Source: Nitrospirota bacterium (GTDB lineage: Bacteria > Nitrospirota > Thermodesulfovibrionia > Thermodesulfovibrionales > JdFR-86). Taken from it: a stretch of DNA of 64,000 nucleotides. Where the stretch lies: contig CAVRJY010000001.1 in NCBI GenBank assembly GCA_963721805.1, forward strand, positions 576,001-640,000. The letters run 5' to 3'. Made by a program: the position numbers and the translations under genes. Of the stretch, positions 1-51,683 are shown one piece after another (position 1 is the stretch's first letter; each line of letters begins with the position of its first letter). Under the pieces are notes generated by a model. The model ran no database searches. It had not been told where the DNA came from and saw only the letters and a list, made by a program, of their open reading frames with translations.

Positions 1-1151
1 GCGTAGCTGTCAACCTCCAGGGGATAGAGAAGGAATCCGTCAGGCGCGGCGACACGCTGGCCGCGGCCGGGAGGCTTCAGCCCACCCGAGTCCTGGACGC
101 GAAGATCTCGCTCCTCCCCGAGGCCCCACCTCTTAAAAACCGCAAGACGGTTCACCTGCATATCGGCACTAGCGAGGCCGTTGCAAGGGTCGTGCTCCAT
201 GACCGCGACCACATCGAGCCGGGCGAGTCCGTCTTCTGCCAGCTCAGGCTCGACGTCCCGGTGGTATCGCAAAGCGGAGACAGGTTCATCATCAGGAGGT
301 TCTCGCCGGTAGAGACCATCGGAGGCGGCGAGGTCCTGGACCCCACGCCCCCGCGCCGCAAGAGGAGCGAGGGGCGCGATGACCTCGCGGTGTTCGAGAC
401 CGGAACGCTTACCGAAAAGATCGCGGTCAAGGTCCGGCGTGCCGGGCTTCAAGGCATTGGAAGCAGGACGATCGAGGGCTGGATAAATTCCGAGATTCCG
501 GCCGTCTCGGCCTCGATTGACTCGCTGGCCGCAAAAAAGATCATCGTACGCCTCGGAGACCTGCTGATGCACGCCGAGGCGGTATCGGCCTTCAGGGATG
601 CGGCCGCTGCCCGGCTCAAGGATTATCATGAAAAAAATCCGCTCAAGCCTGGCATGCCGAAGGAAGAACTCCGCACCGCGCTGCGCATCGAGGACGGCCG
701 CGTCTTTGCCGAGCTGCTCGCGACAGCCGTTGACGTGGTGGTCGAGAAGGACACCCTAAGGCTAAAGAGCTTCAGCGCGGCCGCCTCCTCGGCGGAGCGC
801 GACGAGATCTCGGCCATGCTCCTGCATGACGGCTTTCAGCCGCGCACCCCGGCAGAACTCGCCGCCGCGTCAGGGAAGACCGAGCGCCGGATCGAGGACG
901 TGCTAAAGCTCATGCATAAAGAAGGCTCGGTCGTGCGCATATCGGGTGAGGTCTATCTCTCCCGCGAATACTATGACAGGATGCTCGCCGCTCTGCGCGC
1001 ACATTTCGGAGCAAAGGCCGATATGACTGTGGCCGAGTTCCGCGACCTGCTGGGCACCTCGCGCAAGTATGCCCTGCCGTACCTGGAATACCTCGACGGA
1101 AACCGCATCACGCTCCGCGTCGGCGACGTCCGCAAGCTGCTGTTAAAGTGA
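1..1151 (+). CDS. selB: Selenocysteine-specific elongation factor SelB, 5' truncated by the window edge
   Basis: Frame is open from base 3 (VAVNLQGIEKESVRRGD...LHIGTSE...GDRFIIRRFSPVETIGGG). C-terminal winged-helix motif FRDLLGTSRKYALPYLEYLD is typical of SelB. Confidence 0.95.
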   Translation, partial: VAVNLQGIEKESVRRGDTLAAAGRLQPTRVLDAKISLLPEAPPLKNRKTVHLHIGTSEAVARVVLHDRDHIEPGESVFCQLRLDVPVVSQSGDRFIIRRFSPVETIGGGEVLDPTPPRRKRSEGRDDLAVFETGTLTEKIAVKVRRAGLQGIGSRTIEGWINSEIPAVSASIDSLAAKKIIVRLGDLLMHAEAVSAFRDAAAARLKDYHEKNPLKPGMPKEELRTALRIEDGRVFAELLATAVDVVVEKDTLRLKSFSAAASSAERDEISAMLLHDGFQPRTPAELAAASGKTERRIEDVLKLMHKEGSVVRISGEVYLSREYYDRMLAALRAHFGAKADMTVAEFRDLLGTSRKYALPYLEYLDGNRITLRVGDVRKLLLK

Positions 1152-35733: not shown

Positions 35734-35890
35734 ATAACGGACGCGCTGCATATTAGCGCGGGGTGAACGGTAAAAGTATCGGCGCGGTCGGCTTATGTTA
35801 ACGGCTGGCCGCGCTGTTTTTCACCCATTGGGGGACACGGTCCCCTTTTTATACCGCATCATATTTCTTCATACTTGATGCCGTACCCTT

Positions 35891-35977
35891 GGAGGGGTGG
35901 CTGAGCGGTTTAAGGCGGCGGTCTTGAAAACCGTTGTAGGGGTGACCCTACCGTGGGTTCGAATCCCACCTCCTCCG
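35891..35977 (+). tRNA. tRNA-Ser (anticodon TGA), CCA not encoded
   Basis: Acceptor GGAGGGG/CCTCCTCC, anticodon arm GCGGT-CTTGAAA-ACCGT, long variable arm GTAGGG-GTGA-CCCTAC, T arm GTGGG-TTCGAAT-CCCAC. Confidence 0.96.
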
Positions 35978-36151
35978 TATCCTCAAATCTTTGCCCGGCA
36001 AGGGTTTGCGCCTGAAACCACCCCCAGAATCTCGTTCTGGAGCTATCTTCAAACGCACACGCATCAAGGATGCTTTTGGGGGAGATTGTGTGTATAAGAA
36101 AAGGGACCTTCCCTCTTGGGGAAAGGGGACCTATCTCCATTCATTGTTCCA

Positions 36152-45298: not shown

Positions 45299-45679
45299 AT
45301 GTCAGAAGCTTTAGCCTGCCCGGCGGGTTTCAAGGAGGATGCGGATTTCAGCCGCAAGGTGGATATCCTCAAGGCGATTGCCCACCCGGTGCGGATCATG
45401 ATACTAGATGAACTGGCCAAGGGAGTGAAGTGCGTAAGCGACTTTGCGGACTTTCTTGAAATCAAGCAGCCGAACATCTCACAGCACCTCACCGTGCTGC
45501 GCAACTGCGGGATTATCGACCACTACATGGACGGCAGGCTCAGGTGCTATTTCCTCAGGGAACCGCTCATCCCGGACATGCTGAACCTCATGCACACGAA
45601 GTATGAGAGTCTGCTTCCCGCCCCGGCGTGCTGTCCGGTTACCAAAAAAGGCAAGTACCCTGGAGACAGGAAGAACTGA
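45299..45679 (+). CDS. ArsR/SmtB-family repressor, Cys-rich
   Basis: LKAIAHPVRIMIL...CV...QPNISQHLTVLR HTH; C-terminal CC pair. Confidence 0.92.
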   Translation: MSEALACPAGFKEDADFSRKVDILKAIAHPVRIMILDELAKGVKCVSDFADFLEIKQPNISQHLTVLRNCGIIDHYMDGRLRCYFLREPLIPDMLNLMHTKYESLLPAPACCPVTKKGKYPGDRKN

Positions 45680-45731
45680 CAACGAAAGGAGGACTCATGA
45701 CAATGACCGCAGCGAACAGGAGGTGGGCGGC

Positions 45732-46076
45732 ATGAGCCGTGAACTGGTTTTGTTCCTGTCCACGACGCCGTATAGCTACGAGAACACGCATACGATCATC
45801 AGGCTCGCGAACGCGGCGCTCTCAAAGGGGCGCAAGGTGCGTCTCGTGGCCTCAGGTGACGGTGTGTTTTCACTGGTAAAAGGGCAGGTCCCGCAGTCGC
45901 AGGCCGCGCTCGTCGATCTCGTCGGGCGGGGCATGAAGGTGGACATATGAACGGGCTGCCTGAACAGCCGCGGTCTTGCGGCTGAGGATTCGATAGAGGG
46001 CGGGGAGCTTAGTTCTTTAGCGAGGCTCTTCGATACCATCAAGAGCGAACCCATATTCCTGAATCTCGGCGCATGA
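45732..46076 (+). CDS. DsrE/TusD-family sulfurtransferase, predicted selenoprotein (Sec73, UxxC)
   Basis: LFLSTTPY...GDGV N-terminus. The in-frame TGA at 45948-45950 is followed by TGCLNSRGL...FLNLGA*, completing a 114-aa DsrE fold. Confidence 0.85.
45965..45984 (+). promoter_or_regulatory. Candidate bacterial SECIS hairpin
   Basis: CAGCCGC-GGTCTT-GCGGCTG begins 14 nt after the in-frame TGA; the loop contains GGUCU. Confidence 0.75.
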
Positions 46077-46086
46077 GGGGGCGAAC

Positions 46087-46437
46087 ATGAAGGTCAGCTT
46101 TATTCTCAGGCGGCCGCCATATGGCACCGCCGATGCGGCCGAGGCCGTGAGGCATGCCCTTGGCGGGCTAACGAACGATGTCGATGTCACGCTTATCCTG
46201 CTCGACGGCGGCGCGTTCGCGGCGATCAAGGCGCAGGATGTCGCGGGCACCCCCTATCAGTCGCTCTCGGAGGGGATAGCCGACTGCATAGACATGGGCG
46301 CGGAGGTCGTCGTCGATGAGGCGTCGCTTGCCGAATGCTGCATGGGCATCGAAGACCTCGTGCCCGGCGTAAAGACGACGGACAGCGCCGGTGTGGCGCG
46401 CATAGTCGGCGAGTCCGGCTTAACGATGATATTTTAA
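46087..46437 (+). CDS. DsrF/TusC-family protein
   Basis: FILRRPPYGT...EAVR, LLDGG, SL motif, ends in a short beta strand (TMIF); follows the dsrE homolog. Confidence 0.8.
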   Translation: MKVSFILRRPPYGTADAAEAVRHALGGLTNDVDVTLILLDGGAFAAIKAQDVAGTPYQSLSEGIADCIDMGAEVVVDEASLAECCMGIEDLVPGVKTTDSAGVARIVGESGLTMIF

Positions 46438-46452
46438 AAAAAGGGAGACCTC

Positions 46453-46728
46453 ATGCTGATACTGGTCAAATCCTCACCCGAGACGGCCGAGGCGCGCCGG
46501 GCCTTGCAGATCGCCTCCGAGGCGAAGGCCGAGGTGGTTTTTCTCCAGGCTGCCGTCTATCACGCGGTCAAGGACCGGTTAAAAGGCATCAAACTGGCAA
46601 AGGCATACGCCATTGACGAGGACATGAGGATGCGGGGGATCGATAAATGCCAGTCCGTCGAGGCGATAAGCTACGGCGCGCTCGTCGAGCTGATGGACGC
46701 CCATGAAAACATAACCGGGCTTTATTGA
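46453..46728 (+). CDS. DsrH/TusB-family protein
   Basis: LILVKSSP, FLQAAVY, AIDEDMRMRGI, ISYGALVEL. Confidence 0.85.
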   Translation: MLILVKSSPETAEARRALQIASEAKAEVVFLQAAVYHAVKDRLKGIKLAKAYAIDEDMRMRGIDKCQSVEAISYGALVELMDAHENITGLY

Positions 46729-46750: not shown

Positions 46751-47934
46751 ATGCCAAGGATAGCGATCATAGGCGGCTCGTTTGGCGGGTTGACCGCGGC
46801 GTTCGAGTTAAAGAGGCTTCTCGGCAGGAAGGCCGAGATCACGGTCATATCCGACTCAGACCGTTTCATCTTCATCCCCTCGCTTCCGTGGGTCGCGATG
46901 GGGTGGAGGAAGGCCGGCGACATTACGCTGCCCCTCAAGGGCATCCTCGAATCCAGGGGGATCGCCTTCATGCACACCGAGGCGAAGGGCATAGACGCTG
47001 ACGCCTCAAAGGTATTGACCACGTCAGGCGAGGTGCCATATGACTACCTCGTGATCTCGACCGGCCCTGAGCTCGCCTTCAGTGAGATACCCGGGTTCGT
47101 CCCCGGCAGCGGCAGCACGGAGTGCATCTTCACCCTCGGGCAGGCGGAGCACGCGCATAAGGCCTGGGAGCGCTTCCTGGAATCCCCCGGCCCAGTTGTA
47201 GTGGGGTCGGTGCAGGGGGTCAGTTGCTTTGGCCCGGCATATGAGTATGCATTTGAGATAGACGCCGAACTCAGAAGGCGCGGCATCAGGCATAAGGTCC
47301 CGATTCAGTTCGTCACGAGCGAGCCGTATATCGGGCATTTCGGCATCGGAGGGTTCGGGTCTCGCGCAGATGGCTTGAGGACGAGTTTGCGCAGAGGGAC
47401 ATCAAGACGCTAGCAAACCAGGCGGTCGAGGAGTTCGCCCCGGAAGAGGTGCGGCTCAAAGACGGCACGAAAATACCCTCCAGGCTTACGATGTTCGCCC
47501 CGGCGATGAAGGGCGTGCCCGCTGTCGCCCACCTAGGCAATCCGAGGGGCTTTATCCCTGTCGATGAGAACCTGAGGCACAAGAAGTTCAAAAATATATT
47601 CACAATCGGCGTCGCGGTCGCCATCGCCCCGCCGGAACCGACGCCAGTGCCCACCGGAGTGCCTAAGACCGGATACATGGCCGTGCGTATGGCAAAGACC
47701 GTGGCTGCCGCGATAACGTCGGATGTAATGGGGCAGGCCGCGGGCGCCTATGAGATGGACGTGGTATGCATCATGGACATGGGCAACACGGCCGCGTACA
47801 TGAGCGCAAGGCCGCTGCTGCCTCCGAGGCAGGAGATCACGCTAAGGAAGGCCATATGGGCTAAGTGGATGAAGGTTTGGTACGAGCGCTACTTCCTCTT
47901 CAAGATAAAGCACGGCATTTCCAATCTGCCGTGA
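46751..47934 (+). CDS. sqr: Sulfide:quinone oxidoreductase with an apparent 1-bp deletion at about 47357-47359
   Basis: IGGSFGG FAD motif, FIPSLPW, VSCFGPAYE, PTGVPKTGYM, VCIMDMG. Adding one base at the G run joins the two ORFs via SRRWLEDEFAQRDIK. Confidence 0.88.
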
Positions 47935-50588: not shown

Positions 50589-51683
50589 CGCGGATTGTAA
50601 TGTGAAGTGCAACACCTGTGAAAGAAAAAGCCCATCGTCATCCTGTTCTGTTAGAGTCAAGTACCAACCAGACGAAACAGAGAGGGAGGGACGATGGGCT
50701 ACAGTCATTTTAGCATTGATGAGCGGGAGGGCATCGCAAGGATGCGTTATGCGGGGGTGAGCATACGTGAGATCGGGCGCCAGCTTGGCCGCTCGCCATC
50801 GAGCGTGAGCCGGGAGCTGCGGCGCAACACGAAGAAGTCTTTCTATGGCGCGCACGCCGCAACCGTGCTCTATGTCCGCCGAAGGCATTTTGCGAGCAGA
50901 CGCCTGAAGCGCTGGCCGGACGGCCTGATCGGCTATGCGATGGCGGGACTTTGCAGGCGTTGGTCGCCGGAGCAGGTGTCGGGCCGCCTTAAGCTTGACC
51001 ATCCACATAGCACAGAGATGCGGATATCCTTTGCCACGCTATACAGATGGATACGGCAGGACAGGGCGATGGGGGGCTCGATGCATCGCATGCTGAGGCG
51101 TAAGGGAAGGAGCTACAGAAAAGCCCGGGGGCCTGAGACCAGGGGCCGGTTCAATGGGGCGTTGAGCATCAGGCAGCGCCCCGAGATCGTGGTCCGGAAG
51201 GGACGCTTCGGGGATTGGGAGGCGGATACCGTCTACGGGTTCGACGGGAAAACGTGCATCGCAACGTTTAACGAGCGCAAGAGCCTCTACCTTATATCGA
51301 GGAAGATGCCGAGGCCCGGCTCGGAGGCGTTGAGGGAGGCCGCCGTATCGGCGCTGGGAGGCCTGCGGCAGGGCATGCGTATGACCATGACCGTGGACAG
51401 GGGCAGCGAGTTTGCATGCTACAGGGACTTAAAATACATGATGGGGATCGACGTATACTTCGCCAACCCCTATTGCTCATGGCAGCGCGGCCAGAACGAA
51501 AACCTCAACGGGCTGCTGCGGCAGTACTTTCCGAAGGGGATCGACTTCAACACAGTAACGCAGGAGCAGCTGGATCGCGTCGTTGATGAGATTAACAACA
51601 GACCAAGAAAAACGCTGGACTACAGGGCACCCGCCGAGGTTGCGGCAAATGCGCGCCTGTTGCACTTGGCTTGACAATCCACT
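50589..51683 (+). mobile_element. IS30-family insertion sequence, 1095 bp
   Basis: Imperfect terminal IRs (GGATTGT..AAGTGCAACA, 19/23 identical); 2-bp GG target duplication at 50587-50588 and 51684-51685. Confidence 0.92.
50694..51674 (+). CDS. IS30-family transposase
   Basis: HTH LGRSPSSVSRELRRN, WSPEQ, GDWEADTV, TVDRGSEF, WQRGQNENLNGLLRQYFPKG, INNRPRKTL. Confidence 0.96.
   Translation: MGYSHFSIDEREGIARMRYAGVSIREIGRQLGRSPSSVSRELRRNTKKSFYGAHAATVLYVRRRHFASRRLKRWPDGLIGYAMAGLCRRWSPEQVSGRLKLDHPHSTEMRISFATLYRWIRQDRAMGGSMHRMLRRKGRSYRKARGPETRGRFNGALSIRQRPEIVVRKGRFGDWEADTVYGFDGKTCIATFNERKSLYLISRKMPRPGSEALREAAVSALGGLRQGMRMTMTVDRGSEFACYRDLKYMMGIDVYFANPYCSWQRGQNENLNGLLRQYFPKGIDFNTVTQEQLDRVVDEINNRPRKTLDYRAPAEVAANARLLHLA

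Follow-up and report, generated by a model that had tools for sequence, protein, structure and literature searches.

Selenoproteins of a "DsrE-like protein" family (PF02635, with a UxxC motif) have been in print since 2004-2005; PMC1088965 has them among the selenoproteins of the Sargasso Sea and PMC1794560 among those of Desulfovibrio vulgaris, and the family reappears in reviews of 2022 and 2026 (PMC9312934 and PMC13188914). An earlier note on the DNA analyzed here, in which a hidden selenoprotein of this kind was proposed, had cautioned that DsrE-like selenoproteins were predicted before and that the family is not new; the literature bears this out (PMC1088965, PMC1794560, PMC13188914). The bacterial SECIS is a stem-loop situated within the ORF just past the UGA, its apical loop being small and including a G (PMC1088965). 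The DsrE fold itself is represented by DsrEFH of A. vinosum (2hy5) and TusBCD of E. coli (2d1p), each encoded by three adjacent genes of the E, F, and H type, and by E. coli YchN (1jx7), a protein of 117 aa that is labeled hypothetical in its deposition, with no function assigned. YchN is, to our knowledge, not part of an E-F-H trio. Cys78 of both DsrE and TusD (numbering counted from the sequences shown in printed alignments) is what we take to be the active-site residue that carries the persulfide. DsrEFH is cited as the sulfur donor to DsrC, and it serves for inferring which organisms oxidize and which reduce sulfur (PMC10591310).

Judged by its sequence, the gene described here, which lies in a 64,000-nucleotide stretch of Nitrospirota DNA analyzed as a whole (the window), has every feature that defines the DsrE-like selenoprotein family at that level, namely the PF02635 domain, a predicted Sec in a UxxC motif paired to Cys in homologs, and a stem-loop after the UGA; like the members already described, it is predicted by bioinformatics only. 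In contrast to them, it opens an E-F-H trio, accompanied by an ArsR regulator and often by a sulfide:quinone oxidoreductase (SQR)-like gene, and it belongs to a large Thermodesulfovibrionia branch that the passages on this family in the respective papers do not mention. With DsrEFH and TusBCD it shares the adjacency of three E, F, and H-type genes, the fold (TM 0.84-0.87 by Foldseek), a reactive residue at the column of Cys78 in the context C/U-x6-R-G, and an F subunit without that Cys. It differs from them in that Sec would replace Cys and a second Cys completes the UxxC motif, in that it lacks an insertion of ∼11 residues which the alignment shows in DsrE and TusD, and in that the trio stays below the equivalog cut-offs; whereas dsrEFH of sulfur oxidizers is encoded with dsrAB/dsrC, neither dsrAB nor dsrC is adjacent here. 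The best match in both sequence and structure is YchN, which is of similar length and carries a CxxC at the same two columns, with Cys where Sec is predicted here. Overall, the locus is best explained, and we hold this with high confidence, as encoding a DsrE-like E subunit of a DsrEFH/TusBCD-like trio with Sec at position 73, the recoding being directed by the hairpin. The features on which this reading is built are compiled in Table 1.

Table 1. Coordinates of the DsrE-like gene, its recoding signals, and neighboring features in the window.
Feature	Position	Strand	Basis or remark
selB, 3′ part, Sec-specific elongation factor	1..1133	+	TIGR00475, 380.3 bits
ArsR/SmtB-family regulator heading the operon	45299..45679	+	weak BigR-like match
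Shine-Dalgarno-like GGAGG	45719..45723	+	8 nt ahead of the ATG; sequence inspection
Predicted DsrE-like selenoprotein gene	45732..46076	+	114 codons plus stop, predicted Sec at codon 73, motif U-T-G-C
In-frame TGA, predicted Sec73	45948..45950	+	conservation in relatives; Cys at this column in homologs; alignment with Cys78 of DsrE/TusD
SECIS-like hairpin	45965..45984	+	7-bp stem (45965-45971 with 45978-45984), loop GGUCUU; conservation and covariation
DsrF/TusC-like subunit gene	46087..46437	+	no Cys at the catalytic column; adjoins in 37/37 related loci
DsrH/TusB-like subunit gene	46453..46728	+	TIGR03011, 46.3 bits (cut-off 49.2); in 37/37 related loci
SQR-like flavoprotein gene	46751..47934	+	frame change near 47358-47372

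The ORF begins with the ATG at 45732, and related loci use the same Met. After 72 sense codons the frame meets the TGA as codon 73, and it then stays free of stops over codons 74-114, that is, for 41 codons (U-TGCLNSRGL...NLGA), so that the read-through product would have 114 residues and contain the stretch V-D-I-U-T-G-C-L-N-S-R-G. The coordinates proposed earlier for the ORF (45732-46076), for the TGA (45948), and for the 41 open sense codons behind it were re-read and all are correct. The terminal TGA (46074-46076) overlaps a purine-rich stretch ahead of the ATG of the next gene (46087). A stop of this kind sets the gene apart from all 17 close relatives described below, which end in TAA or TAG; it holds one TGA that is presumably recoded and one that terminates, 126 nt apart. 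The Pfam DsrE domain (PF02635; 50.2 bits) spans the UGA, as its match covers residues 7-104 of 115 and profile positions 5-108 of 116; the similarity expected on both sides of the codon is thus present.

Two sets of related loci were assembled. A scan in which each GTDB species was represented by a single genome yielded 17 close relatives, all metagenome-assembled genomes labeled Nitrospirota, Thermodesulfovibrionales, or Ca. Sulfobium. In 17/17 of them a TGA occupies the same codon and is followed by a conserved, open continuation of 41 codons that ends, at a shared position, in TAA or TAG. When 201 genomes of the class were searched in six frames, 157 contained matches, and these fall into two tiers of identity (60-75% and 40-50%). 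All 99 best matches (E <= 9.3e-19), originating from ∼95 genomes including this one, contained the in-frame TGA; the match ranked 100th covers residues 1-72 only. The lower tier (40-50%) supplied the distant set of 20 loci (L037-L056), and there U-x-x-C was found at the same column in 20/20, as UGGC in 19 and as UGAC in one. The earlier proposal that Sec73 is part of a UxxC motif agrees with these data, the motif being UTGC in the window gene and in 17/17 close relatives and UxxC in every distant one. L037-L056 represent a second and more divergent branch of the operon, with UGGC for UTGC and with F-R-C or F-R-R in place of the conserved R-G.

Homologs were collected in an exhaustive HMMER search of 1.84 billion representatives. 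The search returned 115 matches, of which 24 were dropped (fragments or truncated forms shorter than ∼100 aa, three long proteins, and matches confined to the stretch ahead of the TGA), and the remaining 91 full-length sequences were aligned. The column of the UGA is Cys in 82/91, the second Cys (giving CxxC) is present in 69/91, and Arg80 and Gly81 are kept in 86/91 and 83/91, respectively; the counts for the two Cys columns answer the question raised by the earlier note of whether homologs have Cys where this gene has UGA. The closest Cys form (46% identity) is labeled Chloroflexota. A profile of the 91-homolog alignment matched YchN (1jx7), DsrE (2hy5_A), and TusD (2d1p_A), and in these comparisons the U column coincided with the CxxC of YchN and with Cys78 of both A. 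vinosum DsrE and E. coli TusD, in a C-x6-R-G context. The UGA was accordingly placed correctly when it was first assigned to the active Cys position in this context. An AlphaFold2 model built with 86 sequences reached a pLDDT of 95.8; in it, strand 69-73 ends with residue 73, where helix 74-79 starts, and the C-terminal 41 residues provide two of the five strands. A product of only 72 residues would therefore be without part of its core. Foldseek retrieved YchN, DsrE, and DsrF at TM 0.86-0.87.

The sequence after the UGA can form a hairpin with a perfect 7-bp stem (CAGCCGC/GCGGCTG) that begins 14 nt past the UGA. Stem and spacing were described correctly in the earlier note; the loop was given there as GGUCU, the actual one being GGUCUU (6 nt) or, if a G.U pair closes it, GUCU. 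The apical loop of the E. coli fdhF SECIS contains GGUCU. Folding of the single sequence did not distinguish the region from chance (z = -1.61; 14 of 200 shuffles folded as well), and support for the hairpin is drawn from conservation and covariation. In a gap-free alignment of 38 sequences (the window gene, the 17 close, and the 20 distant relatives), the stem keeps the same register after the TGA. Standard pairs occupy 88.4% of the stem cells, compared with 37-50% after a shift of the 3′ partner by one to three columns. Compensatory changes on both sides were found in 5/7 stem pairs, and the covariation score of 0.411 (0.159 when shuffled) was reached by 0/500 shuffles, although such counts overstate independence because the sequences are related and coding. 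Several of the compensations couple a synonymous change of an Arg codon to an amino acid change on the opposite side, for example from CGC/GCG to CGA/TCG or CGT/ACG.

The loop reads GGUCUU in this branch, and the more distant one has UGUAUY or CGUGCW; the second and third loop bases, G26 and U27 (T27 in the DNA), are at least 90% conserved across the 38 sequences. Rfam models, applied at the gathering threshold, retrieved nothing except a tRNA-Ser, and an E-value search of 45850-46120 gave only chance matches (E >= 2.3); Rfam is not known to contain a broad model of the bacterial SECIS. As in bacterial SECIS elements of the E. coli fdhF type, a stem-loop within the ORF follows the UGA, with a small loop containing G and a conserved G-U; in contrast to these, the hairpin sequence is specific to the family and the loop varies between branches. 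A conserved stem-loop in the ORF directly after the UGA and a small loop with a G, both features of bacterial SECIS elements, are present here, the loop measuring 6 nt. The SECIS-like element for which the earlier note had asked is thus kept, with compensatory changes, across 38 sequences.

Decoding of UGA as Sec requires the respective machinery to be encoded in the genome (2.78 Mb, 9 contigs, 94% complete). A tRNA-Sec with anticodon UCA (71.2 bits; C1:1472361-1472453), selA (575.8 bits), selB (TIGR00475, 380.3 bits; G000:C1:575289-577133), and selD (355.7 bits) were all found above curated cut-offs, which establishes that the Sec-decoding trait is present and settles affirmatively the search for selA, selC, and selD that had been suggested. 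That selB lies in the window holds for its last 1.1 kb only and not for the whole gene, as the window begins at contig position 576001. The selD gene, too, is a selenoprotein gene, an in-frame TGA lying within its motif CSGUAAK (C1; L034:1531), and simple MFE folding revealed no clear hairpin like that of the DsrE-like gene after this TGA. A tRNA-Ser (anticodon TGA) at 35890-35978 (+) was the second-best match of the tRNA-Sec model with 52.3 bits; it is not selC.

Of the stop codons used in the window, TGA is the most frequent, ending 19/37 long non-overlapping ORFs. Genetic-code reassignment of TGA is ruled out by this count, and the recoding must therefore be site specific. Besides the DsrE-like gene, 46 ORFs bridged by a TGA were identified in the window as candidates; when the 19 with the longest flanks were compared with Pfam, no domain crossed a TGA. 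The ORF at 50694-51674 (+; 326 aa) carries an HTH_38 domain (57.4 bits) at its N terminus, of the kind found in IS30-type transposases; its frame stays open beyond its TGA, yet no domain crosses there.

The UGA could be translated without Sec being the residue inserted: Cys, Trp, or Gly might enter at codon 73 by way of a near-cognate tRNA or a mischarged tRNA-Sec, or the codon might switch between Sec insertion and termination depending on the selenium supply. Low-level read-through of UGA does occur, the Sec pathway can insert Cys under selenium shortage, and the identity of residue 73 as Sec is here a prediction. However, a conserved hairpin at a fixed spacing with G-U in its loop is the signature of SelB-dependent decoding (compare the SECIS features in PMC1088965), the genome encodes the complete Sec machinery, and TGC or TGT would serve if Cys were to be incorporated, as it does in the 82 Cys homologs. 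We consider insertion of another residue, or such a switch, improbable; the UGA at codon 73 is in all likelihood read as selenocysteine.

If, on the other hand, the TGA were a genuine stop, the gene would yield a 72-residue DsrE fragment, and the 41 codons downstream would be untranslated or the remnant of a pseudogene. This is how databases annotate it: among the best 120 of 155 database matches, nearly all have 72 aa and correspond to the part before the TGA only (63% of the query), including a Ca. Sulfobium mesophilum entry named "putative DsrE subunit of DsrEFH protein". The prevalence of TGA among the stops of the window and the frameshift in the SQR-like gene of the same operon would also fit. 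The sequence downstream of the TGA speaks against it. In the window gene and 16 close relatives (L017 left out), the continuing frame was free of stops in all 17 sequences, whereas both alternative frames contained stops in 15/17 and one alternative frame in the other two; the open downstream frame exceeds chance. In the same set, variable columns by codon position numbered 24, 12, and 37 of 40 downstream of the TGA, and upstream (window gene and 16 relatives) 34, 23, and 69 of 69. The variation behind the TGA follows a coding pattern, like that of the part before it. The frame is thus open, conserved, and coding in character in every relative examined, the downstream part aligns with full-length Cys homologs and gives two core strands in the AlphaFold2 model, and a remnant would not remain open in ∼95 genomes. 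Termination at this codon as the normal outcome is accordingly very improbable.

An error of sequencing or assembly in this genome, at which the frame change in the SQR-like gene hints by suggesting an indel-prone assembly and to which the public runs (one DNA run with a share of 0.12, no RNA run, and a single 151-nt contig at 46443-46500, hence no read over the TGA) offer no objection, is barely conceivable and in fact untenable because the same TGA occurs in 37/37 independently assembled relatives and, among the 201 genomes, in the 99 top matches, which stem from ∼95 genomes. The TGA and the conserved continuation across relatives rule out a sequencing error and a decaying pseudogene alike.

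The gene neighborhood is conserved to different degrees. The F and H genes follow the E gene in 37/37 related loci, the ArsR gene precedes it in 29/37 (12/17 close and 17/20 distant), and an SQR-like gene is located downstream in 22/37. Here the SQR-like gene falls into two ORFs (46751-47413 and 47449-47934), while its orthologs in related loci are single unbroken ORFs, the one in the relative L008 having 395 aa. The frameshift may reflect a real pseudogene or an assembly indel; either it weakens the functional coupling in this genome or it is an error of the assembly. None of the curated selenoprotein or DsrE equivalog models of NCBIfam claims the E protein, for which no TusD/DsrE match was obtained at E <= 0.01; the F subunit falls below the TusC/DsrF equivalog cut-off (24.5 vs 94.15 bits) and the H subunit slightly below that of TusB/DsrH (46.3 vs 49.2 bits). 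The dsrA and dsrB genes are located at C1:419156-421367, ∼200 kb from the DsrE-like gene (C1:621732). Homologs of DsrC (5 matches) and TusA (6 matches) are encoded in the genome, and none of the dsrC copies adjoins the DsrE-like gene. Three DsrC/TusE matches have an identical score of 158.3 bits (G000:C1:801077-801394, C7:8096-8413, and C8:9038-9355) and may represent a repeated segment or redundant small contigs. A connection to the Dsr pathway is something we infer, because the trio scores below the equivalog cut-offs and dsrAB is ∼200 kb away; for the same reasons the trio is named DsrEFH-like rather than canonical DsrEFH.

With selenocysteine at position 73 as the preferred reading, the locus could function as follows. 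The UGA would be decoded by SelB and Sec-tRNA(Sec), directed by the in-CDS SECIS hairpin beginning 14 nt downstream, to give a 114-residue protein with the DsrE/YchN fold in which Sec73 replaces the persulfide-carrying Cys (Cys78 of DsrE/TusD). The three adjacent genes would supply a DsrEFH/TusBCD-like trio in which this protein is the reactive E subunit, and their products presumably form a complex. Sec73 may accept sulfane sulfur as a selenenyl-sulfide (Se-S) or may undergo redox cycling with Cys76, and Cys76 might assist in forming the Se-S adduct or resolve it. The sulfane sulfur would plausibly be generated by SQR via the oxidation of sulfide and could be handed to further carriers, for instance TusA or DsrC, and the ArsR-type repressor may sense it. 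Homology and gene order suggest such a role in sulfur relay for the trio, and we regard the chances that it has this role as evenly balanced.

According to a survey published in 2024, the majority of the Thermodesulfovibrionia that have reductive dsrAB "possess dsrFH, but no dsrE" (PMC11033732). The Sec codon probably explains this statement. As gene callers cut the protein to a 72-residue stub, the reactive subunit becomes invisible or is mis-scored in genome surveys. A literature search (supplements aside) found no paper tying a Sec-containing DsrE to an ArsR-DsrE-DsrF-DsrH(-SQR) operon; what joined Nitrospirota, selenocysteine, and DsrE were general reviews only, and in the main text of the Ca. 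Sulfobium paper both "dsrE" and "selen" are absent. The selenoprotein family is known, and what is added to it is a large, mis-annotated Nitrospirota branch with an informative operon context; a specialist in selenoproteins will not be surprised by the finding. It is useful for annotation and for surveys of sulfur-cycle markers, in which the presence of DsrEFH informs whether oxidation or reduction is called.

A wider proposal, put forward tentatively and with more doubt than conviction, identifies the Sec-containing E subunit with the "missing dsrE" of those Thermodesulfovibrionia that have reductive dsrAB; together with DsrF, DsrH, SQR, and a persulfide-sensing ArsR/BigR-like repressor, this subunit might constitute a selenium-dependent relay of sulfane sulfur from membrane sulfide oxidation to TusA and DsrC. 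The chemistry of Se-S relay would find a natural test case in a DsrE-type protein that has Sec where the persulfide is carried. If the proposal is true, the presence or absence of DsrEFH has been mis-scored in Thermodesulfovibrionia as a marker of oxidative versus reductive metabolism, and the supply of selenium could gate the sulfane-sulfur branch of their sulfur metabolism.
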